Assembly: GCA_965541615.1 (NCBI GenBank)
Contig: CBEUCJ010000004.1
Coordinates: 21,167-85,166 of the forward strand
DNA from: an uncultured bacterium
GTDB taxonomy: Bacteria > Omnitrophota > Gorgyraeia > Duberdicusellales > CBEUCJ01
Length of the DNA: 64,000 bases
Direction of reading: 5' to 3'
Shown: positions 27,353-40,206 of the stretch, piece after piece
Position numbering within the stretch: position 1 is the first letter of the stretch
How the letters are laid out: each line of letters starts with the position of its first letter
The notes under the pieces: generated by a model
What the model was told of the DNA's origin: nothing
The model's database searches: none
The model's input: only the letters and a program-made list of their open reading frames with translations
Program-made: the position numbers and the translations under genes

Positions 27353-28198
27353 ATGAATTGTAAAAAAGAATTAGAAACCTTAAAAAAGTATTTCCAAAAA
27401 GAAAATGAAGTAATATTAGCTTTCCTTTTTGGTTCTCATGCAGAGGAGAGAGCGAGAAGCTTTTCTGATTGGGATATAGGAGTTTATTTTAAGCCAAAAG
27501 AATATTTAGAATTAGTTTCATCTTGTAGATACCCAAAAGAAGAAAAAATCTGGTCTGATTTGGTAGAGATATTAAAAACAGATAATATTGATTTTGTAGT
27601 ATTAAACAGAGCCTCTCCTGATTTAGTTTATAAAGTGTTAAAAGATGGGATCCCTTTAACAATTAAAGATGAAAAATTGTATTATGATCTTTTATGTAAA
27701 GCAAGTTATGAATCAATAGATTGGTGGCAATTTGTAGATGAATACTGGAGAATAAGAGAAAATGCAAAGTCTTTGAGTCCTCAGGCAAAAGCGCAGGTTC
27801 AGAAAAGGCTTATTTTTTTAGAAGAACAATTTCAGGATTTTGAATATTTTAAAAAATTAACTTTTTCTGTTTATTCTACAGATAGAAAGGAACGCAGAAA
27901 TGTAGAAAGATGGATAGAGAATTTGGTAATTTCAGCTATAGATATTGCTCAGATTTTTTTAGCTTCAGATAAAAAAGAGATTCCTCAAACTTACAAAGAG
28001 ATTTTAAAAGTATTCACCACTATTTACCTTAACTTTCCTCCTGAATCTGCTGAGAAATTTTCTGATTTTGTAAAATTGAGAAATATAATTACCCATGAAT
28101 ATTTAGATATTAGATGGCAAAAGATAAAAGATTTTATTGACCAAGGCTATTTTTTATATTCCCAGTTTATAGAAAAAGTAAAAGCTAAATTATTGTAA
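27353..28198 (+). CDS. Fused MntA-like nucleotidyltransferase / HepT-like (DUF86) HEPN protein
   Basis: N-terminal LFGSHAEERARSFSDWDIG (NTase GS…D.D); C-terminal RNIITHEY (Rx4HxY HEPN motif). Confidence 0.65.
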   Translation: MNCKKELETLKKYFQKENEVILAFLFGSHAEERARSFSDWDIGVYFKPKEYLELVSSCRYPKEEKIWSDLVEILKTDNIDFVVLNRASPDLVYKVLKDGIPLTIKDEKLYYDLLCKASYESIDWWQFVDEYWRIRENAKSLSPQAKAQVQKRLIFLEEQFQDFEYFKKLTFSVYSTDRKERRNVERWIENLVISAIDIAQIFLASDKKEIPQTYKEILKVFTTIYLNFPPESAEKFSDFVKLRNIITHEYLDIRWQKIKDFIDQGYFLYSQFIEKVKAKLL

Positions 28199-28248
28199 TA
28201 ACCTGTAATTATATAGCACTCTCTTCAGCGAAGCACAGAAAAGTAATT

Positions 28249-28638
28249 TTGAGAAAGTATGGTATAATAGGAAATGTGAAAGAAGAGCAATTGAAAACAA
28301 AAATCATAGAAATTTTTGACAAATATTTAGGAGAAGAATATATATTATTTCTTTTTGGCTCTTCTTCTAAAAAAACTTCTGATATTACTTCAGATATAGA
28401 TTTGGCAGTTTATTGTGATTATACTATTTCTCCTCTTTTAGTTCTTAAAATAAAAGAAGAACTTGAGCATAAACTACATACTCTAAAGGATATAGATTTG
28501 ATAAACCTCACTGATACCACTATAAATAAAAATTTGTTAGAAAGCATCCTAAGGGAGAGCATTTTATGGAAGAAAGGCAAAAATTATCAAGAACTTTTGA
28601 AAAGTTTGAGAGAGCGTTTAGAAAATTTGAAGAGGTAG
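28249..28638 (+). CDS. Minimal nucleotidyltransferase (MNT) antitoxin-like
   Basis: LFGSSS…SDIDLAV NTase motif. Confidence 0.7.
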   Translation: MRKYGIIGNVKEEQLKTKIIEIFDKYLGEEYILFLFGSSSKKTSDITSDIDLAVYCDYTISPLLVLKIKEELEHKLHTLKDIDLINLTDTTINKNLLESILRESILWKKGKNYQELLKSLRERLENLKR

Positions 28639-28994
28639 TAAGATCACCCTATCTTTTTGAGTTTTTAAATGAAGAATTAATAATTGAAATATCTACTAAG
28701 AGATTTGAATATACTTTTGAAAGCCTATGGAAGACATTGAAAGAATTTTTGAGAGTAGAAGGAGTAATTTGTTCTACACCTTTGCAGTGCTTTAAAGAAG
28801 CTTTTAAAAGAGGACTTATAAAAGAAGAAGATGAGAGTATATTTGCTCAAATGATAGAAAAAAGAAATAGGATAGTTCATATATGTGGACTCGAAGAAGC
28901 AAAAGAGATTTATGAATTTATAAAGAAAGAAGAAGTGTATTCTGCTCTCCAGAATATTTATGAGAAACTAAAGGACACAATAAAATCTTCTTAA
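28566..28994 (+). CDS. HEPN-domain protein (HI0074-like NTase substrate-binding), toxin-like partner of preceding MNT
   Basis: RNRIVH (Rx4H) motif; overlaps MNT gene. Confidence 0.7.
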   Translation: MEERQKLSRTFEKFERAFRKFEEVVRSPYLFEFLNEELIIEISTKRFEYTFESLWKTLKEFLRVEGVICSTPLQCFKEAFKRGLIKEEDESIFAQMIEKRNRIVHICGLEEAKEIYEFIKKEEVYSALQNIYEKLKDTIKSS

Positions 28995-29211: not shown

Positions 29212-30447
29212 ATGAAAAGAAAATTTGTAATTACAGGAATTGGAGTGGTAAGTTCAGTTGGAATTGGAAAAGAAGAATTTTGGAATGCATTAAAAGAAGG
29301 CAGACAAGGAGTAAAAGAAATAGAATATCCTGAGTTAAAAGAATTAAAAGTAAGAAAAGCTTACCAAGTTTCAGATTTAGAACCTGCTAAGTTTTTAGGT
29401 CATAAAGGATTAAGGAATTTAGATAAGCCAACTAAATTACTGCTAATTTCTGCAAAGTTAGCTTTAGAGGATGCAAATTTAGAAATTACAGAAAAAAATA
29501 CAGATTGTGTAGGAGTAGTTACAGGCACAACTTTAGGGAGTATTCCTTCTATAACTGAGTTTAATAAAGAAGTTCTTTTGGAGGGAATAGAATTTTCAAA
29601 CCCTGCACTTTTTCCTAACACAGTAATAAATGCTCCCTCTTCTCAAATTTCTATAAGATTTGGTATTCAAGGGTTTAATACTACCATTTCTACAGGTTTT
29701 ACTTCAAGTTTAGATGCGTTAAAATACGCTTTAGATTTTCTGGAATTAGAAAAAGCTCAACAGATTTTAGTAGGAGCTGTAGAGAGTTTAGATTTTTCTA
29801 TTTACTTTGGATTTTATAAATTGGGGTATTTAGCAGGAATAAGAGGACCTGAGATTATGTGTCCTTTTGATAGAAGAAGAAATGGAGTAATTTTAGGAGA
29901 AGGAGCAGTGAGTTTAATTTTAGAGACAGAATCTGAAGCAAAAAAAAGAAAGGCGAAGATTTATGCTGAGGTCAAAAGTTGTGTCCAATTTTTTGATGGA
30001 TTTAGGTTAGGCAAAATTCATCCTCAAGGAGAAGGTTTAGAAAGAGCTATAAAGAAAGCTGTGGAGATATCAGGATTAGATTTAAAAGATTTTGATTATG
30101 TAAACTGTTCTGCAAACTCCACAAAAGATTTAGATAAGATTGAACTTAATGTTTTAGAAAAAACTTTTGGGAAAAGATTATTAAAAAAAATTCCAATAAC
30201 TTCTATAAAATCTATGATCGGTGAGACTTATTCAGCTTCTGGAGCTTTTCAGATAGCAAGTTGCGTAGGAAGTTTTGTAAAGGGATTTATTCCAAGAACT
30301 TTAAATTATAAAGAAAAAGATCCTCAGCTTCCAGAGGTTAACATAGTAACTGATGATATGATAAAAAGTAAAATAAATAATATTTTAATTTCATGTTTTG
30401 GTCCGGGAGGATACAACTCAGCTTGCGTAATAAGTAGATATTCTTAA
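29212..30447 (+). CDS. Beta-ketoacyl synthase-like protein with all three catalytic residues substituted (CLF/KS-beta-like, Cys>Phe, His>Asn, His>Glu)
   Basis: Thiolase-fold KS sequence, but TGFTSSLDAL where TACSSSL is expected, CSANST where HGTGT is expected, IGETYSASGA where IGHxxGAAG is expected. Confidence 0.75.
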   Translation: MKRKFVITGIGVVSSVGIGKEEFWNALKEGRQGVKEIEYPELKELKVRKAYQVSDLEPAKFLGHKGLRNLDKPTKLLLISAKLALEDANLEITEKNTDCVGVVTGTTLGSIPSITEFNKEVLLEGIEFSNPALFPNTVINAPSSQISIRFGIQGFNTTISTGFTSSLDALKYALDFLELEKAQQILVGAVESLDFSIYFGFYKLGYLAGIRGPEIMCPFDRRRNGVILGEGAVSLILETESEAKKRKAKIYAEVKSCVQFFDGFRLGKIHPQGEGLERAIKKAVEISGLDLKDFDYVNCSANSTKDLDKIELNVLEKTFGKRLLKKIPITSIKSMIGETYSASGAFQIASCVGSFVKGFIPRTLNYKEKDPQLPEVNIVTDDMIKSKINNILISCFGPGGYNSACVISRYS

Positions 30448-30454
30448 AATTCTT

Positions 30455-31189
30455 ATGCAGGAATTTAAAAATAAGGTAGTAATTATTACTGGTGGAACAA
30501 GAGGAATAGGAAAAGAATTAGTAATAAAATTTTCACAACAAGGAGCAGATGTAATTTTTACTTATTTAAAAAATAAGAGTTTGGCAAATAAGATGAAAAA
30601 AGAATTTAAAAATGTTCTACCTATCCAAGCAGATGTAAAAAAATATGAAGATTGCAAAAAAGTAGTTGAGAAGGTTTTAAAAAAGTTTAAAAAAATAGAT
30701 ATTCTTGTAAATAATGCAGGAATAAGAAGAGATAAATCATTATTAATGATGGATTTAGAGGATTGGAGAGAAGTTTTAGATACAAATTTAAATGGTGTTT
30801 TTAATATGTGTAAAGCAAGCATAGTCTGGTTTATGAAGCAGAAGTTTGGTTGTATAATAAATATAAGTTCAGTAAGTGGAATAATGGGGTTAGTAGGACA
30901 AACAAATTACTCAGCTTCTAAAGCTGGAATTATTGGTTTTTCTAAAGCTTTAGCAAAAGAATTAGCCTCTTACAACATAAGAGTAAATGTAGTAGCTCCT
31001 GGGTTTATAGAAACAGATATGACCAAAGATTTAAGAGAAGAGTTTAAGAAAGAAATGGTTAAATTAATTCCTATGAAAAGATTTGGAACTCCTTCTGAAG
31101 TAGCTGAGCTATGTTTATTTTTAGCAAGTAATAAAGCAAGTTATATTACAGGAGAAATTATAAAAGTAGATGGAGGTTTGTGTATATAA
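30455..31189 (+). CDS. fabG: 3-oxoacyl-ACP reductase (SDR)
   Basis: TGGTRGIG, NNAG, YxxxK (YSASKAG) motifs. Confidence 0.85.
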   Translation: MQEFKNKVVIITGGTRGIGKELVIKFSQQGADVIFTYLKNKSLANKMKKEFKNVLPIQADVKKYEDCKKVVEKVLKKFKKIDILVNNAGIRRDKSLLMMDLEDWREVLDTNLNGVFNMCKASIVWFMKQKFGCIINISSVSGIMGLVGQTNYSASKAGIIGFSKALAKELASYNIRVNVVAPGFIETDMTKDLREEFKKEMVKLIPMKRFGTPSEVAELCLFLASNKASYITGEIIKVDGGLCI

Positions 31190-31204
31190 AAAAGGAGAAA
31201 AGTC

Positions 31205-31462
31205 GTGGGTAAAAGAAAAGAAGTAGGAGATATTAAAAAAGAGATAAAAAAAGTTGTTTCAGAGATTGTAGAGGTTCCAGAATCAGAATTAAAAGAAGAT
31301 GCAGATTTCCAGGATTTGGGTGTTGATTCTATGATGGCTTTGGAGATTGTAGCTACTATTGAGAAAAAATTTAAGATAGTCATTCCTGAAGAGGAAATTC
31401 CAAAGGCTACTAACTTAAAAAAGATTTACGAGTTAGTAGAAAGACTTAAAAAGAAAAAATAA
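31205..31462 (+). CDS. Acyl carrier protein
   Basis: LGVDSM phosphopantetheine site; GTG start with AAAGGAG RBS. Confidence 0.8.
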   Translation: MGKRKEVGDIKKEIKKVVSEIVEVPESELKEDADFQDLGVDSMMALEIVATIEKKFKIVIPEEEIPKATNLKKIYELVERLKKKK

Positions 31463-31912
31463 GTGCAAGATATTAAAATAAAAAAAATTCTTCCTCACAG
31501 GTATCCTTTCATTTTTATAGACAAAGTAGAAGAGGTAGATTTAAAGAATAAAAAAATAATTTGCAAAAAGAAATTCAGCATCAGCGAGTATTTTTTCAAG
31601 GGTCATTTTCCACAGAATCCTGTCGCCCCAGGAGTTTTATTGATAGAAAGTATGGCTCAAAGTGCAATAATTTTATATGCAAGTATTTATCCTGAAATAG
31701 CTAAATTAAAACCAGATTATTATTTAGGAAAAGTATCTGCAAAGTTTTTGAATCCAGTTAAGATAGGAGATGTGCTAAAAATAGAAGTAAAAATGATCAA
31801 GTCTTTAAAAAATGCAGGTATTGTAGAAGCTGAATGTTTTGTTGAAGACAAAAAAGTATGTGAAGGTGTGTTAAGTTTTGGAGTAAAAGTAAATTCAACA
31901 TCAACTACTTAG
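31463..31912 (+). CDS. 3-hydroxyacyl-ACP dehydratase, FabZ-like hotdog
   Basis: LPHRYPFIFIDKV and HFP…PVAPGVL catalytic His motif; abuts ACP stop. Confidence 0.8.
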   Translation: MQDIKIKKILPHRYPFIFIDKVEEVDLKNKKIICKKKFSISEYFFKGHFPQNPVAPGVLLIESMAQSAIILYASIYPEIAKLKPDYYLGKVSAKFLNPVKIGDVLKIEVKMIKSLKNAGIVEAECFVEDKKVCEGVLSFGVKVNSTSTT

Positions 31913-31930
31913 CTAATTCTAATTTTTATT

Positions 31931-33151
31931 ATGAAAAGAAGGGTAGTAATTACAGGGTTAGGAGTAGTGAGTCCTATAGGGATTGGCAAAGAGGAATTCT
32001 GGAAAAATTTAATAAAAGGTAAAAGTGGAGTAAGAAAAATAACTCTGTTTGATACTTCTAAATTTAAAAGACATTATGCAGCAGAAGTTAAAAATTTTAA
32101 CCCTTCTCAATTCATAGATAAAAGAAAACTTAAATTTTTAGGGCGTTCATCTCAACTTTCAATCGTAGCTACAATTTTAGCTTTAAAAGATGCTAATATA
32201 AATTTCAAAGATGTAAATGGAGTATTAATAGGAACTACAATGGCTGAACATCAACAAGTAGAAGTGCTTTTGAAAGAGTGGTTTAAAGGAGATAAAAAAA
32301 TAGAGAAAAATAGAGTAGTTTTATCTCCTGCAAGTAATTTGAGTGCGAATACAGCTCAAAGTTTAAAAATAAAAGGTTTAAATATGCTTATTCCCACAGC
32401 TTGCTCAGCTGGAAATTATACTATTAGTTATGGATTTGATTTAATTAAAAAAGGTGATGCTGATTGCATAATAGTAGGAGGAGCTGATGCTTTGTCATTC
32501 ATTGCTTTTTCAGGATTTCAAAGATTATACGCAATGGCTCCTAAAGTCTGTCAGCCTTTTGATAAGAATAGAAAAGGTATGATATTAGGAGAAGGAGCAG
32601 GAGTTTTGGTTTTAGAATCTTTAGAGAAAGCTTTAAAAAGGAAAGCAAAAATTTATGCAGAAATTTTAGGGTATGGGTTATCTTGTGATGCTTATCATAT
32701 GACGATCCCTCATTATAAAGGAATAGAAAAAGCAATAAAAAAAGCTTTAGATTCAGCAAATGTTAGTCCTGAGGACATAGATTACATATGTGCCCATGGA
32801 ACAGGAACTATTCAAAATGATAAAGCTGAATGCAAAGCTATAAAAAATGTGTTTGGCAGAAGATATAAAAAGATTCCTGTGAGTTCTATAAAATCTATGA
32901 TTGGACATTGTATGGGAGCAGCATCTAGTATAGAAGCAGTAGCTTGTTGTTTGGCAATTGAAAATGGAGTTATCCCCCCTACCATCAATTTCCAAACACC
33001 TGATCCTGAATGTGATATAGATTGCGTTCCTAACAAATCAAGAAAAGCAAATTTAAGAATAGTCCTAAACAATGGATTTGCTTTTGGTGGAAATAATTGT
33101 TGTGTGGTTTTAGGAAAAGTCAATGATCAAACTTATAAATTGCATCATTAA
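31931..33151 (+). CDS. Beta-ketoacyl-ACP synthase (active KS; Cys-His-His intact)
   Basis: IPTACSAG (Cys), CAHGTGT (His), KSMIGHCMGAAS (His). Confidence 0.85.
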   Translation: MKRRVVITGLGVVSPIGIGKEEFWKNLIKGKSGVRKITLFDTSKFKRHYAAEVKNFNPSQFIDKRKLKFLGRSSQLSIVATILALKDANINFKDVNGVLIGTTMAEHQQVEVLLKEWFKGDKKIEKNRVVLSPASNLSANTAQSLKIKGLNMLIPTACSAGNYTISYGFDLIKKGDADCIIVGGADALSFIAFSGFQRLYAMAPKVCQPFDKNRKGMILGEGAGVLVLESLEKALKRKAKIYAEILGYGLSCDAYHMTIPHYKGIEKAIKKALDSANVSPEDIDYICAHGTGTIQNDKAECKAIKNVFGRRYKKIPVSSIKSMIGHCMGAASSIEAVACCLAIENGVIPPTINFQTPDPECDIDCVPNKSRKANLRIVLNNGFAFGGNNCCVVLGKVNDQTYKLHH

Positions 33152-33235
33152 GAAAAATAAAAAATAAGTAGTTCCTCGCATTTTTTAAAAATTTTTACTT
33201 TTAAATTTCTTTAAAAAACTTTTTAAATGAATACA

Positions 33236-33258
33236 GAAATCAGAGCTGTGATATAATA
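33236..33258 (+). promoter_or_regulatory. Candidate extended -10 promoter (TGaTATAAT) upstream of reductase gene
   Basis: TGnTATAAT seen about 10 nt upstream of ATG 33268; weak -35. Confidence 0.25.
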
Positions 33259-33267
33259 ATATAAAAA

Positions 33268-34380
33268 ATGGAAGAAAATAAAGTAGCCCTCCTTACAGGT
33301 TCTACAGGATTTTTAGGAAGTTTTTTAGCAAAAGAATTACTTGATAAAAATTATTTTCTTTATCTATTGGCTCGCCCTAAGAAAAATAAATCTGCATTTG
33401 AAAGAGTGATAGAAAGTTTGAAATTTGTTTATGAAGATGAATGGACTGATAAATTGTTATCTCGAATAAAAGTAATTTCAGGTGATATTACACAAGATAA
33501 TCTTGGGATTCATTCTAAAAAAGAAATAGAGGAACTCATTAAAGAGGTAGAGATTATATTTCATTCTGCTGCTTTAGCTGAGTTAAGGGTTCCTTTAGAG
33601 AAAATTAGAAAAATAAATGTGGAGGGAACAAGAAATATATTAAAGTTCGCTTTAAAATGTAAAGAAAAAGGGAGATTAAAAAAGGTAAATCATATAAGTA
33701 CAGCTTATGTAGTAGGTAAAAAAATAACTAATTTTAGTGAAGATATGTTAGATTTGGGTCAAGAATTTAATAATACATATGAGCAATCCAAATTTGAAGC
33801 AGAGCTTTTAATAAATGAATTTAGAGAAAAAGGTTTAAAGATTTCTATTTTTAGACCAAGTATGATAATGGGAGATTCCAAAACTGGAAAGACAAATAAA
33901 TTTAAAATATTTTATCAACTATTACATGCTTTTTCTTTAGAAATCTATAAAAAATTTCCAGCAAATTTAAAATCTACACAGAATCTAATAAATATAGATA
34001 CTGTAGCAAAAGCTGTAAGTATTTTAGGCGAAATAGAAGAAAATTCCACTTATCATATTGTGAGTCCAGAAGATACTTCTGTTGAATTTTTTATGAAATT
34101 AGTTTCAGATTATTTTGGATTTAAATTGCCAGAATTTATTCCTGTGGAAGAATTTAATTTTGACGAATGGAGTCCTGTTCAAAAAGCGTTGGCTGAGCCT
34201 TACATTCCTTATTTTAATTTTAAAACAAAATTTTTATCACAGAAAACTCAGCAGGCTCTTAAAAAATATAATTTTATTTATCCTAAGATTGATAAGAATA
34301 ATTTTTTTAATATTTTTGAATACTGGCATAAAAAAAGTTTCGTCAGGAAAAGCTTACATGGACCTCTTGCAATTAATTAG
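33268..34380 (+). CDS. Stand-alone thioester reductase-domain protein (fatty acyl-ACP/CoA reductase-like SDR)
   Basis: TGSTGFLGSFL (TGxTGFLG R-domain motif), YEQSK catalytic YxxxK. Confidence 0.7.
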   Translation: MEENKVALLTGSTGFLGSFLAKELLDKNYFLYLLARPKKNKSAFERVIESLKFVYEDEWTDKLLSRIKVISGDITQDNLGIHSKKEIEELIKEVEIIFHSAALAELRVPLEKIRKINVEGTRNILKFALKCKEKGRLKKVNHISTAYVVGKKITNFSEDMLDLGQEFNNTYEQSKFEAELLINEFREKGLKISIFRPSMIMGDSKTGKTNKFKIFYQLLHAFSLEIYKKFPANLKSTQNLINIDTVAKAVSILGEIEENSTYHIVSPEDTSVEFFMKLVSDYFGFKLPEFIPVEEFNFDEWSPVQKALAEPYIPYFNFKTKFLSQKTQQALKKYNFIYPKIDKNNFFNIFEYWHKKSFVRKSLHGPLAIN

Positions 34381-34941
34381 GTATCGTAGAACCATAAGAA
34401 AATATAAAGATAAATCACTTTCAAAAAAAATAATAAAAAGGATTATTATAGCTGGAAAATGGGCTCCTTCTCCTCATAATTCTCAACCATGGTTATTTGT
34501 GATAATAAGGAATGATAAGCTTAAGGAGGAACTTTTAAATTTGTTAAATAGATCTTCAAAAGAATTTTTGGTAGGCGTTAGAGTATTATTCAAGAATACT
34601 ATACAAATAATAAAAGAAGCTCCACTTATAATTTTAGTATACAATACAAAATCTCTCTCTCAAAAAGTTAAAAAATTAGGGAACCTTATTTTTCTAATGC
34701 TTATATTTCAGAAATACAAGGAATATCTTCTGCCATACAAAATATGTATTTGATGGCTACTTCTTTAGGCATAGGTATGGCTTGGTTGATGTTCCCATTG
34801 TTGGTTAAGGGAAAGATCAATAGATTACTTAAGATAAAAAAATATGAATTAGTTGCAATTTTAACATTAGGTTATCCTGCTGAAAGAGGAAAACGTTTAA
34901 AAAGGAAATCTTTATCTGAAATAGTAAAATTTATAGAATGA
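34358..34941 (+). pseudogene. Nitroreductase-family gene interrupted by a -1 frameshift in an A6 run near 34670-34676
   Basis: N-terminal part (RRTIRKY…PSPHNSQPW) and C-terminal part (AIQNMYLMATSLGIGMAW) are in different frames; one extra A restores …VKKIREPYFSNAY…. Confidence 0.6.
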
Positions 34942-34955
34942 GAAAAATAGAACTC

Positions 34956-35150
34956 TATGCAAGAAAGCACGATGCAATAATAAATAATAAATTGAAATGA
35001 AGATTAGAAGTTTAGTTGATGAATGTTATTTAGCAGAGACAGAATTGAAGGGTTCTTGATTGTTGAAAGAATGATAAGCTAGGAGGATAGTGGCACTTCT
35101 TTTGAAAGAGATGGATGTAAGGTTTATTGTAGAAGATTTATTAATCGTGT
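34956..35150 (+). pseudogene. Decayed ~190-nt duplicate of the 5' end (including ATG) of the CrtI-like gene at 36613
   Basis: By-eye alignment to 36612-36775 about 75-85% identical; frame contains stops (MQESTMQ*). Confidence 0.6.
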
Positions 35151-35170
35151 AAGACAAAAATAATTTGCTT

Positions 35171-36460
35171 ATGGAATTTGATTATATTATTGTAGGAGCT
35201 GGTTTAAGCGGATTAAATTTAGCAAAAGAGTTAGTAAATAGAAAAAAGAAGGTTCTAATATTAGAGAAGGGACAATTCTTAAATAGAGTAGGTAGAATTT
35301 TTTACGCAGCAGCTTTTTATGATAAATGTGCTCTGGCAAAAAGTAAAGAAGGAGTTCTTATTTATAGAGTCTTTGGTGTAGGAGGAACTAGTATAGTAAG
35401 TTGTGCCAATGCTGTAGAGCCCTCTCAGGATATAAAAGAAAAGTTTAAAAAGTTTGGTATAGAGTTTGAAAAAGAGATAAAGGAAGTGAAGAGAGAATAC
35501 CAAGTAAGTGTTAAAAATTTACCGGTAGGAAAAGTTTCTTTAAAGATCATGGAGATTGCTAACAAATTAGGATATGAAACGAAAATTATGCCTAAATTCG
35601 GTGCTTCAGGAGAGTGCAGATTATGTGGGAGATGTGTTTTGGGATGTAGATGGGGGGTAAAGTGGACAGCGTTAAAATTTTTAGAGGATATAGATGAGAA
35701 GAATTTTAAAATAGTTACTAATTTCAATGTTAAAAAGATAATTATCTCCAATGGGAAAGCAAAGGGGGTGGAAGGAAGCTATTTAAAGATAAGAAAAAAG
35801 AAGTTTTATGCTGATAGAATAATTCTAGCTGCAGGAGGAATAGGAACACCTGTTATATTGCAAAATTCAGGAATTGAGGCAGGTAATAACTTATTTGTGG
35901 ATTACTTTAATGTAACTTATGGAATTCATCCTTCGCTTACTCAGAAAAAGGAGCCATGTATGTCTGTGATATGTGATAAGTTCCATCAAAATGAAGGATT
36001 TATATTATCTCCTTTTGTGGATAATTTTGTAGGTTTTCTTTCGTCTGTAAAAAAGAAATATTTTTTTAGAGTTTTTAAACTGAATCAAATTTTAGGAATT
36101 ATGACTAAGATTAAGGATGAAGAAAATGGTAAAGTTTTTAAAAATGGAGTAATAAAAAAGGAGCCTACTCAAAGAGATTTAGAAAAGTTGGAAAAGGGCA
36201 GTAAAATTGCTAAAGAAATTTTGATTAAATGTGGAGTAATTCCTCATAGTATAATTGTAACCAAACCCCGTGGTGCTCATCCTGGAGGAACTGCAAGAAT
36301 AGGTGAAGTAGTTAACAATAAATTGGAGACACAAATAAAAAATTTATTTGTATGTGACGCAAGTGTTTTGCCAACATCTTTAGGGATTCCCCCAATGCTA
36401 ACATTAATTGCTTTAGGAAAATGGTTTGTGAAAAATGTTTTAATAGAGGGAGTTAAATGA
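35171..36460 (+). CDS. GMC-family FAD-dependent oxidoreductase (short form)
   Basis: DYIIVGAGLSG N-terminal FAD motif; C-terminal GAHPGGTARIG…CDASVLP GMC signature. Confidence 0.65.
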   Translation: MEFDYIIVGAGLSGLNLAKELVNRKKKVLILEKGQFLNRVGRIFYAAAFYDKCALAKSKEGVLIYRVFGVGGTSIVSCANAVEPSQDIKEKFKKFGIEFEKEIKEVKREYQVSVKNLPVGKVSLKIMEIANKLGYETKIMPKFGASGECRLCGRCVLGCRWGVKWTALKFLEDIDEKNFKIVTNFNVKKIIISNGKAKGVEGSYLKIRKKKFYADRIILAAGGIGTPVILQNSGIEAGNNLFVDYFNVTYGIHPSLTQKKEPCMSVICDKFHQNEGFILSPFVDNFVGFLSSVKKKYFFRVFKLNQILGIMTKIKDEENGKVFKNGVIKKEPTQRDLEKLEKGSKIAKEILIKCGVIPHSIIVTKPRGAHPGGTARIGEVVNNKLETQIKNLFVCDASVLPTSLGIPPMLTLIALGKWFVKNVLIEGVK

Positions 36461-36612
36461 GTTTTCTAAAAACACTAATATTTAATGTGGAAGACTTTAA
36501 GAAAGTATAAAATAGACAAGTTTCAAAATTAGATATTTTGCGAAAAAGAATGTTAGAAAAGTAAAATAATAAAAAAAGTGGTGAGGTAAAATTTGTATAT
36601 TATAAAAAACAC

Positions 36613-38052
36613 ATGCAAAAGAAATACGATGTAGTAATAATTGGAGCAGGAATTGGAGGTTTGGTTTGTGGATGCTATTTGGCAAAGGCAGGATTGAAGG
36701 TTTTGATTGTTGAGAAAAATGATAAGCCAGGAGGATATTGTACTTCTTTTGAAAGAGATGGGTATAGATTTGATGTGGGAGTGCATTATTTGGGAGGTAT
36801 AAAGAGAGGAACGTTAGGAAGAATTTTAGAAGAATTAGAAGTAAAGGATAATATAAAGTTTCGCCAGTTTGATCCTACAGATAAGATAGTTATGCCTGAG
36901 AATATAACTTATATAAGAGCGAACCCTTATGATACTATCAAAGAATTTAAAAAAAGTTTTCCTAATGAGAGAAAGAATATTGAAAGATTTTTTAAATTTG
37001 TGATGCAGAGGAATTTTTTAGAGATTTATAAAAAAATAAGAAAATTAACTTTTAAACAGATTTTAGATGCATTTTTCAACGATTATAAACTGAAAGGAGC
37101 ATTGAATGTATTATTAGGAAACATTGGAGTTCATGCAAGTATAGCTCCAGCTTTAAGTGGAGTGATTTTGTATAGAGAGTTTATTCTTGATCCAGGCTAT
37201 TATCCTGAAGGAGGGATGCAAAGTTTTTCTGATGCACTGGCTAAGAAATTTAAAGAGTACGGAGGAGAAATAATGTTTTCTGAAGAAGTGAAAAGGATTT
37301 TAGTGAAAAAGAAAAAAGTAGATAAAATTCTATTAAAGGGAAATAAGGAGATCTGTGGTAAAATAGTAATTTCTAATAATGATCCAAGACAAACCTTCTG
37401 TAGATTAATAAATATAAAGACTAAAGAATCTTATATTGTAAAGAAATTGCAATTAAGCCCTTCTATTTTTGGAATATATTTAGGAATAAATTTCAACCGA
37501 AAGAATGAGGTAAAAACATATCCCTGTGTGTGGATTTCTAGGATTTATGATTTAAATACCTCCTTTGTTCCTTCTATAGAAAGAATTGTAAAAGGTAAGT
37601 TTCTTTTATCAATGTTTACATTTTTCCCTATTTTACAAACCAAAGTTTCTATTGAAATATTTACATTAGTTCCTTTTGTTTCACATAGTTTTTGGAAGAA
37701 TCCACCAATGAGATTAGTAGAAGAGTTGATAAAAGCTGCCCAAAGAGAATTCGGTTTTAAAAAAAACAACTTAGAGATAAAGGAAATAGCTACTCCTGTA
37801 ACTTTTGAAAAATTCACTTCAAATACTCAAGGAGTAGCTTTTGGTTGGAAATCTACATTAAACCAAATAAAACTTTCTACATTTCCTTTAGAGACTTCTA
37901 TTAGAGGACTTTTTATAGCAAGTCAATGGGGGACTGTGGGGAGTGGACAAGGAGGGATTCCTAAAGTAGCTTTTTGTGGAAGAAAAACAGCTTATTTGGT
38001 ACTAAGTAAGTTAAAGAAAGAATGGCCATATTCTACACATTTGATAATGTAA
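36613..38052 (+). CDS. FAD-dependent oxidoreductase of the phytoene-desaturase (CrtI/CrtD-like) family
   Basis: YDVVIIGAGIGGL…VLIVEKNDKPGGY amine-oxidase/CrtI-type N-terminus. Confidence 0.65.
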   Translation: MQKKYDVVIIGAGIGGLVCGCYLAKAGLKVLIVEKNDKPGGYCTSFERDGYRFDVGVHYLGGIKRGTLGRILEELEVKDNIKFRQFDPTDKIVMPENITYIRANPYDTIKEFKKSFPNERKNIERFFKFVMQRNFLEIYKKIRKLTFKQILDAFFNDYKLKGALNVLLGNIGVHASIAPALSGVILYREFILDPGYYPEGGMQSFSDALAKKFKEYGGEIMFSEEVKRILVKKKKVDKILLKGNKEICGKIVISNNDPRQTFCRLINIKTKESYIVKKLQLSPSIFGIYLGINFNRKNEVKTYPCVWISRIYDLNTSFVPSIERIVKGKFLLSMFTFFPILQTKVSIEIFTLVPFVSHSFWKNPPMRLVEELIKAAQREFGFKKNNLEIKEIATPVTFEKFTSNTQGVAFGWKSTLNQIKLSTFPLETSIRGLFIASQWGTVGSGQGGIPKVAFCGRKTAYLVLSKLKKEWPYSTHLIM

Positions 38053-40206
38053 ATGATGAGTCTAAATTTATTTAGTATTTCTTCTTTTCTAATTTTCATT
38101 TTTAGTATTTCTTTGGGTATTTTTACTTTTTTAAAGAATAGAGAAAGAATAGGAAAAATATGGATTTCTTTTTGTTTTCTTGCTTCTATTTGGGGGTTTG
38201 GGGGATACAAGTTCTCTACGGTTTCTAACTACGACGATGCTTTTTTTTGGTGGCAGGTTGCATATATATGTGTAATTCTCTCTCCTGTGGTGTACACTCA
38301 TTTTGTATTTGTTTTTCTTGAAATAAAGAAGAAGTTTTTTTTGTGTTGTTTTTATATCTTAGCAGGAATATTTTTAGGACTTAATTTTTTTGCTCCTAAA
38401 CTTTTCTTAGGAGATTTAAGGTTCATATTTAATCAATTTTGGTGGCATGATTGGGTTAAGAGAAAAAATGTAGTATGGTTAATTTTTTATTTTTGTTTTT
38501 ACTGGTATCTTTTGGTATATTGCTTTTTTCTATTGATAAAATATTATAAGAGAACTTCTGGTGTAAAAAAGTTTCAGTTAAAATATTTTATATTAGCTTC
38601 AGTTTTTGGGTGGATAGGTCCAATTGTAGATTATCTTCCCGTTTTTCGGATCGATATTTATCCTTATGCTAATTTTTTAACAATTCTTTATCCCTTTCTT
38701 ATTACGTATGCCGTTGTCAAGTATCGTCTTATGGACATTCGCATTACGATTACTCAAACAGGCATTTTTGGTTTAGTTTATGCTTTGATATTGGCTATCC
38801 CTTTTGCAATAACTTTCTGGGGAAGAGGACATTTATATCCTTATTTTGGAGAATTCTGGTGGGTGCCTTCATTTATACTTTTAGCAGTTTTAGCTTCTAC
38901 AGGTCCTTTTATTTATATGTATTTACAAAAGAAAGCAACAGATTTTTTATTAAGAGAAGAGAGGAAGTATCAAGAGGCGCTTTTGGCTTTGGCAAAAGAA
39001 ATGGTGAATGAGAAAGATTTAGATAGATTATTGAGGATTATAGTTTTAAGAGTTTACAGATTAATGAAGTTAAAATTTACAGGAGTCTATTTATGTGAAA
39101 AAGAAGATAGTTTTGCTGTTTTGAAATATAAATGGCCTAAAAAAGAAAATCCATTGCCCCAAAGACTTCACTTACACACATCTTCTCTAATAAAAGCTAT
39201 TAAGGAAAAGAAATCTCCTTTTGGTTTAGATGAAGCAGAAGTCGATAAAGAATCAGAAGGTTTACCTGATTACGGAGCAATAATTCCTTCTTTTATGGAT
39301 GATACCTTAATTGGTTTTTTATTTTTAGGTCCTAAAAAGAAAGGAGATTTTTCGCCAAGAGACTATGAAGTATTTGAGACTTTAAGTTTACAAGCAGCTT
39401 TAGCTATTGAGAATGCTTTATATTTAGAAGAGTACAAAAAGACTCAAGAAGCTTTGTTTCAAGCTGAAAAATTAGCAAATATAGGTGTGATGGCTTCAGG
39501 GATGAGTCATCAGATGAATAACAGATTGCAGGTCATAAGTCTAATAGCAGGAGATATAAAAGATGAGATAAATTTCTTAAAGGAAACCGACCCTGAAACT
39601 CTAAAAACTTTCATTGCTCATGTAAAAGAAAATATGGAAAGATTAGAAGAAGAGATAAAGCATGGAAGAGAAGTGATAAGAGGTCTTTTAGATTATTCAA
39701 AGAAAAGACAGATAAGGTTTATGCTTGTAAATTTTGAAAAGGACATCTTGCAAGATGCTTTAAAACTTTTGTATACCAAGCAAAAAATAGAAGATGCAGA
39801 ACTCAACTTTGAGATTCAAAAAGATTTACCTTCTATTTGGGCAGAACCTACTCAGATGGCAGAAGTCGTGTTTAACTTATTAGACAACGCTTACGAAGCT
39901 GTAATTATGAAAAAGAATCATCTAAATGATTCAAATTTTAAAGGGAGAATAACATTGAAAGCCTACAGTATAAATGAATTTTTTAGAATAGATGTAGAGG
40001 ACAATGGAATAGGAATTAAAGAAGAAGATAAAAAGAAAATTTTTATCCCCTTTTTCACAACAAAATCTTCTACAAAATCAGGTTTTGGATTAGGTATGTA
40101 TGTAGTAAAGAGGATAATAGAATCTCATAAAGGTAAAATCTGGTTTGAATCTAAATATTTAGAAGGAACCAAATTCCATATAGAACTCCCCTTACCTCAA
40201 TTTTAA
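38053..40206 (+). CDS. Sensor histidine kinase with large multi-TM N-terminal sensor, no adjacent response regulator
   Basis: About 10 TM helices, then HisKA (SHQMNNRL) and HATPase_c (DNGIGI…GFGLGM) motifs. Confidence 0.75.
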   Translation: MMSLNLFSISSFLIFIFSISLGIFTFLKNRERIGKIWISFCFLASIWGFGGYKFSTVSNYDDAFFWWQVAYICVILSPVVYTHFVFVFLEIKKKFFLCCFYILAGIFLGLNFFAPKLFLGDLRFIFNQFWWHDWVKRKNVVWLIFYFCFYWYLLVYCFFLLIKYYKRTSGVKKFQLKYFILASVFGWIGPIVDYLPVFRIDIYPYANFLTILYPFLITYAVVKYRLMDIRITITQTGIFGLVYALILAIPFAITFWGRGHLYPYFGEFWWVPSFILLAVLASTGPFIYMYLQKKATDFLLREERKYQEALLALAKEMVNEKDLDRLLRIIVLRVYRLMKLKFTGVYLCEKEDSFAVLKYKWPKKENPLPQRLHLHTSSLIKAIKEKKSPFGLDEAEVDKESEGLPDYGAIIPSFMDDTLIGFLFLGPKKKGDFSPRDYEVFETLSLQAALAIENALYLEEYKKTQEALFQAEKLANIGVMASGMSHQMNNRLQVISLIAGDIKDEINFLKETDPETLKTFIAHVKENMERLEEEIKHGREVIRGLLDYSKKRQIRFMLVNFEKDILQDALKLLYTKQKIEDAELNFEIQKDLPSIWAEPTQMAEVVFNLLDNAYEAVIMKKNHLNDSNFKGRITLKAYSINEFFRIDVEDNGIGIKEEDKKKIFIPFFTTKSSTKSGFGLGMYVVKRIIESHKGKIWFESKYLEGTKFHIELPLPQF

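Follow-up and report, generated by a model that had tools for sequence, protein, structure and literature searches.

A decayed 5' copy of a CrtI-like gene as a probable scar of recombination between two layouts of an Omnitrophota gene cluster

How did a broken copy of the start of a gene come to lie upstream of a different, intact gene, with the complete original on the other side of that gene? The question is raised by a 64,000-nucleotide stretch of DNA (hereafter the window) with a GC content of 30%, nearly all genes of which are on the + strand and every named database relative of which, at the protein level, comes from a Candidatus Omnitrophota/Omnitrophica MAG. The locus belongs to a cluster that opens with genes for a KAS (29212-30447), FabG (30455-31189), an ACP (~31205-31468), a FabA-like dehydratase (31463-31912), and a second KAS (31931-33151). 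These are followed, all on the + strand, by a thioester-reductase-like gene of the 'Type II' allele described below (R', 33268..34380; NAD_binding_4, Pfam PF07993, E=2e-62), a nitroreductase gene in two reading frames (N', 34358..34941; Pfam PF00881 on both pieces), and the fragment that concerns us here (psiC, 34957..35146). Beyond it are a gene for a GMC-family oxidoreductase (35171..36460; Pfam PF00732 and PF05199), a spacer of 152 nt (36461-36612), the intact gene of a CrtI-like (phytoene-desaturase-family) FAD oxidoreductase of 479 aa (36613..38052; Pfam PF13450 and PF01593), and, as a conserved downstream neighbour, a 7TM-GAF histidine kinase gene (38053..40206; Pfam PF16927, PF13492, and PF02518). 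A sequence-only reading had taken 34956-35150 to be a degenerate duplicate of the beginning of the CrtI-like gene, and had proposed that the GMC gene was inserted recently, in an event that duplicated its target.

The fragment was compared with the whole window by BLASTN, using 34801-35300 as the query. The sole non-self match above noise joined 35003-35114 to 36652-36761 (93/113 identical, 82%, with 4 gap positions); its E value of 1.4e-24, against 0.026 for the next-best match, places the similarity far above AT-rich chance. In MAFFT and Smith-Waterman alignments the homology reached back to the ATGs at 34957 and 36613 and forward to about 35146 and 36790, with an uncertainty of ±~15 nt at the 3' limit of psiC; the copy thus identified earlier was genuine, with its start codon corrected to 34957 and that of the GMC gene set at 35171. 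The two copies shared 83% identity over 159 aligned columns, with 27 substitutions and ~9 indels, one of them an 8-nt insertion, which agrees with the 75-85% identity and small indels first estimated by eye. The stops that had been seen in the copy were present in all three frames, just ~190 of the 1440 nt of the CrtI-like gene were kept, and the longest exact match to the intact copy was 20 nt. The GMC ORF between the two copies was uninterrupted, as had been read.

In the CrtI-like protein, the N-terminal ~62 residues (KYDVVIIGAGIGGLVCGCYLAKAGLKVLIVEKNDKPGGYCTSFERDGYRFDVG...; window 36613-36800) are near-invariant across the related loci L011, L012, L016, L019, and L024, although the same proteins are only 47-57% identical overall; this N-terminal conservation is unusually strong and reaches past the FAD-binding motif. 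Because the first 62 codons are near-invariant, with orthologous 5' ends 81-89% identical at the nucleotide level, an identity of 82% is by itself no proof of a duplicate that arose within the genome, and third codon positions had to be analyzed. At these positions psiC was 82% identical to the window's own gene, compared with 59-71% to L024, L011, L012, L016, and L019 and 41% to the most distant orthologue, that of L013; the intact window gene was itself 53-71% identical to the same five orthologues and 35% to L013. By these values, the sister of psiC is specifically the CrtI-like gene of the window itself. Judged by sequence comparison, psiC is a copy of the start codon and the first ~60 codons of that gene.

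The 27 differences were spread evenly (9/9/9) over codon positions 1/2/3, with no third-position excess, which indicated that the copies were near-identical when psiC stopped being a gene and that nearly all of their divergence is neutral decay of psiC. Compared with six orthologues, every first- and second-position change was unique to psiC; 13 of the 19 changes that could be polarised were GC->AT, the GC content had come to 30.7% versus 36.5% in the intact homologous stretch, and the invariant GxGxxG motif was destroyed. The fragment therefore shows what marks a pseudogene fragment, namely homology, a broken and truncated frame, no codon-position bias, and no conservation in relatives: it was found in none of the related loci, which had at this place an intact CrtI-like gene (L024, L013-L018, and L106/L107) or other content. 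We conclude that psiC is a non-functional orphan 5' fragment, an ordinary dead piece of a gene and no new kind of element.

Its position directly upstream of the GMC gene, together with two promoter-like hexamer pairs within it (35063-35091 and 35102-35130), could suggest that psiC was retained for a function, be it that of a GMC promoter or leader, of a small ORF (MQESTMQ*), or of a structured RNA. We consider this very improbable. Promoter-like sites were not enriched over shuffled sequences (15 vs 10.3 +/- 3.2), the same scan found no terminator-like site, and an Rfam search of 34300-36800 returned nothing in psiC or in the spacer; moreover, the substitutions look unconstrained and drift to the GC content of the genome, and psiC is carried by no other genome. 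The lone Rfam match, a sub-threshold hit to DUF805b RNA inside the GMC coding sequence (35267-35294; 17.4 bits against a gathering threshold of 35.6, E=0.13), is almost certainly due to chance.

We addressed the native arrangement of the locus with ~30 related Omnitrophota loci, which were gathered by exact-protein look-ups and one metagenome scan and ordered by tblastn with reference proteins; a scan of genome contigs with the CrtI-like protein gave, among the matches listed, only distant relatives (<=53% over short stretches). Two layouts were observed, with and without the GMC gene. Type I has the order KAS-reductase-GMC-nitroreductase-CrtI-kinase (L019/L020, L023, L025, L027, L028, L029, L031, L036, L037, and L038). 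Three further contigs (L021, L022, and L026) end after the GMC gene, so that the order past GMC was read only from longer contigs; in every GMC-bearing relative that extends that far, GMC lies between the reductase and the nitroreductase. In more distant homologues the GMC gene is directly before the kinase. Type II has the order reductase'-nitroreductase-CrtI-kinase, without GMC (L024, L106, and L107), and the nitroreductase also directly abuts CrtI, with no GMC between, in L013-L018. The GMC gene immediately upstream of CrtI was not found in 80 metagenome loci, and only the window has that order. The comparison of related genomes for presence of the GMC gene, which had been suggested as a check, thus bore out the view that the cluster was remodelled: in relatives with the same type of reductase, the nitroreductase abuts an intact CrtI-like gene and GMC is absent.

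The cluster as a whole, KAS-FabG-ACP-FabA(ApeI/ApeP-like)-KAS-thioester reductase-(GMC)-nitroreductase-CrtI-like-7TM kinase, recurs in many Omnitrophota MAGs in several layouts, as read from window 29212-40206 and from L013, L016, L019, L021, L029, L031, L105, and L106; its dehydratase matches resemble those of aryl-polyene clusters. In L012 the region upstream of the CrtI-like gene (6-374) is the end of a different, unannotated gene of 122 aa, a 90% identical start of which is present in L025 (4957-5019), ~1.4 kb downstream of the nitroreductase; L012 and L025 represent one more layout, in which additional genes separate the nitroreductase from CrtI. Nucleotidyltransferase/HepT (HEPN) toxin-antitoxin pairs were observed at 27353-28994 of the window, between a CLP1_P-like gene and the first KAS. 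L019 lacks them at the corresponding spot; next to the Type I locus of L025 there is a piece with 93% identity (1-251), and toxin-antitoxin pairs also lie between nitroreductase and CrtI in L011 (2641-3769). These pairs appear to be mobile toxin-antitoxin cassettes that landed repeatedly in the cluster.

Within this framework, the left part of the window locus is that of a Type II locus. The contig of L024 is collinear with window 33032-35119, through the KAS 3' end, R', the R'-N' overlap, and N' including its 3' end, and then 160 nt into psiC; the same L024 gene start also aligns to the intact gene (36613-37310). The psiC ATG follows the N' stop at 34941 by 15 nt, and in relatives the distance from nitroreductase stop to CrtI start ranges from a 4-nt overlap (L106/L107) to 33 nt (L024) and 54 nt (L019). 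The collinearity and the spacing together indicated that psiC occupies the native CrtI start position of a Type II locus.

N' itself is frameshifted near 34680-34700, by the loss of 1 nt at KKLGN|PYFSNAYISEIQ in a three-frame translation against intact relatives, and is thereby split into a 132-codon ORF from the ATG at 34358 (the last ~20 codons out of frame) and a 65-aa ORF; the shift may reflect genuine pseudogenisation or else a miscalled base. The nitroreductase is also split (129 + 65 aa) in L019 (9292-9875), the nearest Type I relative, and in L020 (2907-3490), at a different site (AAIQ|NMIL, with an A-run one base short). The split genes of the window and L019 represent either independent disruptions in two sister lineages or the same type of sequencing error.

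Downstream of psiC, an abrupt change of homology was found. CrtI homology fades by ~35146-35160, at about nt 190 of the gene, and GMC homology of the relatives begins at 35171-35174, so that unrelated sequences are joined inside a gene, with GMC-locus homology starting within ~25 nt of the point where CrtI homology ends. The left junction between psiC and the GMC-bearing segment, placed at 35147..35170 by these limits, bears by eye a 17-nt resemblance to the last codons of the L019 reductase that is too short for testing; any microhomology at the junction is unreadable after ~17% decay, and candidate matches there are very short. A 12-nt match between 35124-35135 and GMC codons 6-9 (35187-35198) was discarded as junction microhomology, since both copies are present, 63 nt apart, and are not fused.

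Truncated pseudogenes often arise by later deletion, and psiC has a proper ATG start just past the nitroreductase stop; it might thus be the remnant of a complete second CrtI-like paralogue, in an order N'-CrtI_1-GMC-CrtI_2, that later lost ~1250 nt at its 3' end. This course of events is improbable, because in the ~30 loci the CrtI-like gene occurs neither twice nor in a CrtI-GMC-CrtI order, no remnant of its 3' end was found upstream of GMC, and the deletion would need to have stopped ~20 nt or less from the GMC start codon.

The other side of the GMC gene was informative as well. Type I nitroreductase genes begin at the GMC stop or slightly ahead of it, and in the window an ATG at 36457 overlaps the GMC stop in the same manner. 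Eleven codons past this ATG, after a frame slip, the translation reads 'KTLRKYK', which fits the R-T-I-R-K-Y-K of the family at profile positions 11-17. Against a profile of nitroreductase N-termini this region scored 6.8 bits, a value equalled by 2/400 shuffles (p about 0.005), and no other 158-nt tile of the 64-kb window scored higher, the real N' excepted; support at the nucleotide level was weak (summed score 219 vs 196 +/- 12). No significant match to any of the fetched loci was obtained for the spacer by BLASTN or TBLASTX, and a protein profile for the nitroreductase 3' end gave no significant match in its 152 nt. A relic of that 3' end was also sought by nucleotide alignment to N', where the signal was weak (z=2.5, 14/500 shuffles, eight targets), and was set aside as unproven. 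From the ATG position and the seven-residue motif, the first ~80 nt of the spacer (psiN, 36457..36535, + strand) are probably a relic of the 5' end of a second nitroreductase. Such a relic directly after the GMC stop suggests that the GMC gene had kept its Type I downstream neighbour.

The genes of the locus differ in their nearest relatives. R' was 89% identical at the amino acid level to the reductase of L024 and 60% to that of L106/L107 (P0245), against only 41-43% for those of L019, L021, and L023; Type I reductases are 60-74% identical among themselves. The GMC protein of the window was 83/81/77% identical to those of L019/L023/L021 (82.7% at the nucleotide level to that of L019). The CrtI-like protein was closest to that of L012 (70% aa, 75% nt), followed by L011 (56%), L024 (54%), and L019 (49-51%). 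Overall, the nearest relative was L024 for R', L011 for N', L019 for GMC, and L012 for CrtI and the 7TM part of the kinase. Breakpoints in identity, either of which may or may not belong to the event behind psiC, were located at ~33070-33117, at the KAS 3' end, and at ~38750 in the kinase gene. The region 33117-38750 is thus a patchwork of alleles with differing nearest relatives, to which more than one event may have contributed. In conjunction with the two layouts, which both occur in related Omnitrophota and could supply donors with and without GMC, these allele affinities showed that the locus is a hybrid, in which a Type II left part (R'-N'-CrtI 1-190) is joined to a Type I piece (GMC with the probable nitroreductase relic) and a full CrtI gene.

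Two further features of the mosaic were observed. A tract of ~780 nt (window 33075-33850, L024 ~110-890), which spans the KAS 3' end, the intergenic region, and the first ~580 nt of R', is 97-100% identical to L024, a contig that is otherwise 50-90% identical; the identity drops sharply left of ~33070 and declines gradually rightward. This tract has the look of DNA imported by recombination very recently, long after the origin of psiC. In the kinase gene, the 7TM part (38053-38750) has ~37-67% nucleotide identity to L019/L024 and is as divergent as the CrtI-like gene, and past ~38750 the identity jumps to ~75-92% (L019) and 90-100% (L024). For both relatives together, the step at ~38750 is one from ~50-65% to ~85-100%. 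It seems that the 7TM sensor domain and the variable enzyme block move together.

A locus of this kind in an assembled genome could also be an artefact, produced when co-occurring Type I and Type II strains were joined through their CrtI 5' sequence; the source is a 190,618-nt contig of an uncultured organism, and strain-level mosaicism is clear in the population. This explanation is hardly credible, since an assembler cannot make 27 substitutions, 9 indels, and stops, and the decayed copy must therefore be real DNA; the 20-nt longest exact match between the copies is too short for a mis-join, and there is no repeat at the psiC/GMC junction.

We therefore turn to how the two parts were joined, and consider it likely that psiC is a scar from the splicing of two alternative cluster architectures, with a Type II left part and a Type I piece. 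On the simplest route, a single recombination event would have used a homology anchor on one side (the KAS gene, or CrtI/kinase) and, on the other side, an illegitimate join of CrtI nt ~190 to the base just upstream of GMC, giving R'-N'-CrtI(1-190)-GMC-N-CrtI-kinase. The redundant second nitroreductase would then have been internally deleted, leaving the 152-nt spacer, and psiC would have decayed neutrally towards the genome's 30% GC. We infer the one-sided-homology mechanism, the order of these steps, and the resident half from the present arrangement; neither a pre-event arrangement nor the same post-event arrangement was found in any relative, and the event was rebuilt from distant loci (49-89% aa). 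That the two CrtI 5' ends were near-identical when the event took place means that the donor was conspecific or that the gene start was truly duplicated within the genome.

Evidence was found for either half being the incomer. In favour of an incoming GMC segment, the GMC-less L024 comes nearest to the window both in R' (four-fold K=0.14) and at the kinase 3' end (90-100% nt), and the four-fold K of GMC to L019 (0.64) exceeds that of the flanks (0.34-0.54) and resembles the L019-L023 value (0.65). In favour of an incoming R'-N'-psiC segment, the KAS genes and the kinase on either side have their closest match in L019, a Type I genome (77-89% aa), and the nucleotide identity of GMC to L019 equals that of the KAS region (82.6%). 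The 82.7% GMC identity was at one point taken as proof that GMC was resident; this argument was dropped because four-fold sites show GMC to be somewhat more diverged than its flanks. In a rough split of our own, the chances are about even that a Type II locus received the GMC segment; entry of the R'-N'-CrtI5' segment into a Type I locus is somewhat unlikely, and a more complex route is rather unlikely. The sequence-only reading, in which GMC is the incomer, accordingly has as its alternative the import of R'-N'-CrtI5' upstream of a resident GMC.

Insertion with a true duplication of the target, as that reading proposed, would mean that a GMC fragment entered a resident nitroreductase-CrtI locus and duplicated ~190 nt (or more) of it, through Campbell-type integration of a circular intermediate or through replicative template switching, both copies deriving from the same resident gene. 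We give this account less than an even chance. It would explain the direct repeats on both sides of GMC; the 9/9/9 pattern and 82% third-position identity fit copies that were identical at time zero; L024, closest for R' and the kinase 3' end, is GMC-less with its nitroreductase directly abutting CrtI; and the K of GMC to L019, above that of the flanks and equal to that of L019-L023, hints that GMC was not co-inherited with them. However, the ~30 loci contain no donor with GMC next to CrtI, and a circular intermediate with both genes would need an origin of its own; mobile-element features are absent, and to our knowledge no bacterial insertion mechanism duplicates 190 nt of its target. The relic of a nitroreductase that follows GMC, moreover, implies that the inserted piece was cut from a Type I array, which ordinary one-sided recombination fits too. 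A transposon target-site duplication in particular was rejected, as the repeat is ~190 nt long and encloses only the GMC ORF and the 152-nt spacer, with no transposase and no terminal inverted repeats. Of the insertion claim, then, the dead direct repeat beside GMC and its tie to a relocation of GMC have held, and a transposon-type duplication has not; nor did GMC move alone, given the probable nitroreductase 5' relic after its stop.

Returning to the scar of two spliced architectures, its age can be estimated from psiC. The proportion of differences (p=0.17) corresponds to a Jukes-Cantor distance of ~0.19 substitutions/site, in addition to the ~9 indels. Between the window and L019, the nearest sequenced relative, the total four-fold-site K of the flanking genes is 0.34-0.54. 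The distance of psiC is thus about half of this K and roughly the per-lineage synonymous distance, which indicates that the event was not recent; on this point the earlier claim of recent remodelling was contradicted. The divergence of psiC is also about an order of magnitude above that in the 97-100% identical tract common to L024. RecA needs tens of identical bases for recombination, and with a longest exact match of 20 nt, recombination between psiC and the intact gene, which could once have excised GMC, would now be unlikely.

The value of psiC is that of a marker: it fixes one rearrangement breakpoint in a cluster with wide conservation across the uncultured phylum Omnitrophota and reveals at least two layouts of this cluster, which recombine with each other; the variable block of the cluster is a mosaic. 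psiC also serves as a rough clock, which dates the event to about the time when the lineage parted from its nearest sequenced relative, other tracts of the locus having been exchanged much later. As such psiC is useful background for annotating the cluster and opens no new question by itself. A broader idea, which we offer tentatively and consider unlikely as it stands, is that the block 33117-38750, which holds the reductase, the GMC gene where present, the nitroreductase, the CrtI-like enzyme, and the 7TM sensor part of the histidine kinase, is a hypervariable, often exchanged cassette of Omnitrophota, like O-antigen or effector-immunity loci. If so, recombination under diversifying selection on a lipid of the cell envelope would pass alternative enzyme sets and their matching membrane sensor from lineage to lineage, and displaced modules would have left their first visible scars in psiC and the nitroreductase relic.

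Passages in PMC3240628 describe homology-facilitated illegitimate recombination (HFIR), in which one end of the incoming DNA is joined by homology and the other by an illegitimate join; the original reports, as cited in PMC5361080, are de Vries & Wackernagel 2002 and Prudhomme et al. 2002. In passages of the same two sources, one-sided homologous and illegitimate recombination is a described route to orphaned gene pieces (PMC3240628; PMC5361080). HFIR would yield, as here, a resident gene cut at an arbitrary point (CrtI nt ~190) and joined to foreign sequence just upstream of GMC, with normal homology resuming on the far side; unlike in HFIR, we infer the mechanism here from the end product alone, rather than from a donor/recipient pair. 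Orphaned fragments left by module displacement are also described for the Rhs/CDI 'orphan' 3' regions and the T6SS effector-immunity arrays of Vibrio cholerae (PMC5361080). In those systems, as in the window, a variable block between conserved genes swaps modules and the displaced pieces stay as scars beside the new module. They differ in that 3' toxin ends or immunity genes are left, possibly functional, whereas the window holds the dead 5' end of a metabolic enzyme gene, as one scar (with a possible nitroreductase relic) rather than an array, and no evidence ties its locus to inter-bacterial conflict.

Target-site duplications of transposons and insertion sequences are 2-15 nt long. The window has in common with them the direct repeats around an inserted gene, but its repeat is ~190 nt long and its 'insert' is a piece cut out of a neighbouring operon layout. 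psiC also resembles an ordinary AT-biased pseudogene fragment, with which it shares the stops, the indels, the equal rates at codon positions, the excess of GC->AT changes, and a GC content brought down to the genome mean. There is no essential difference between the two; as a direct repeat around an intact gene, psiC in addition dates and locates a rearrangement.
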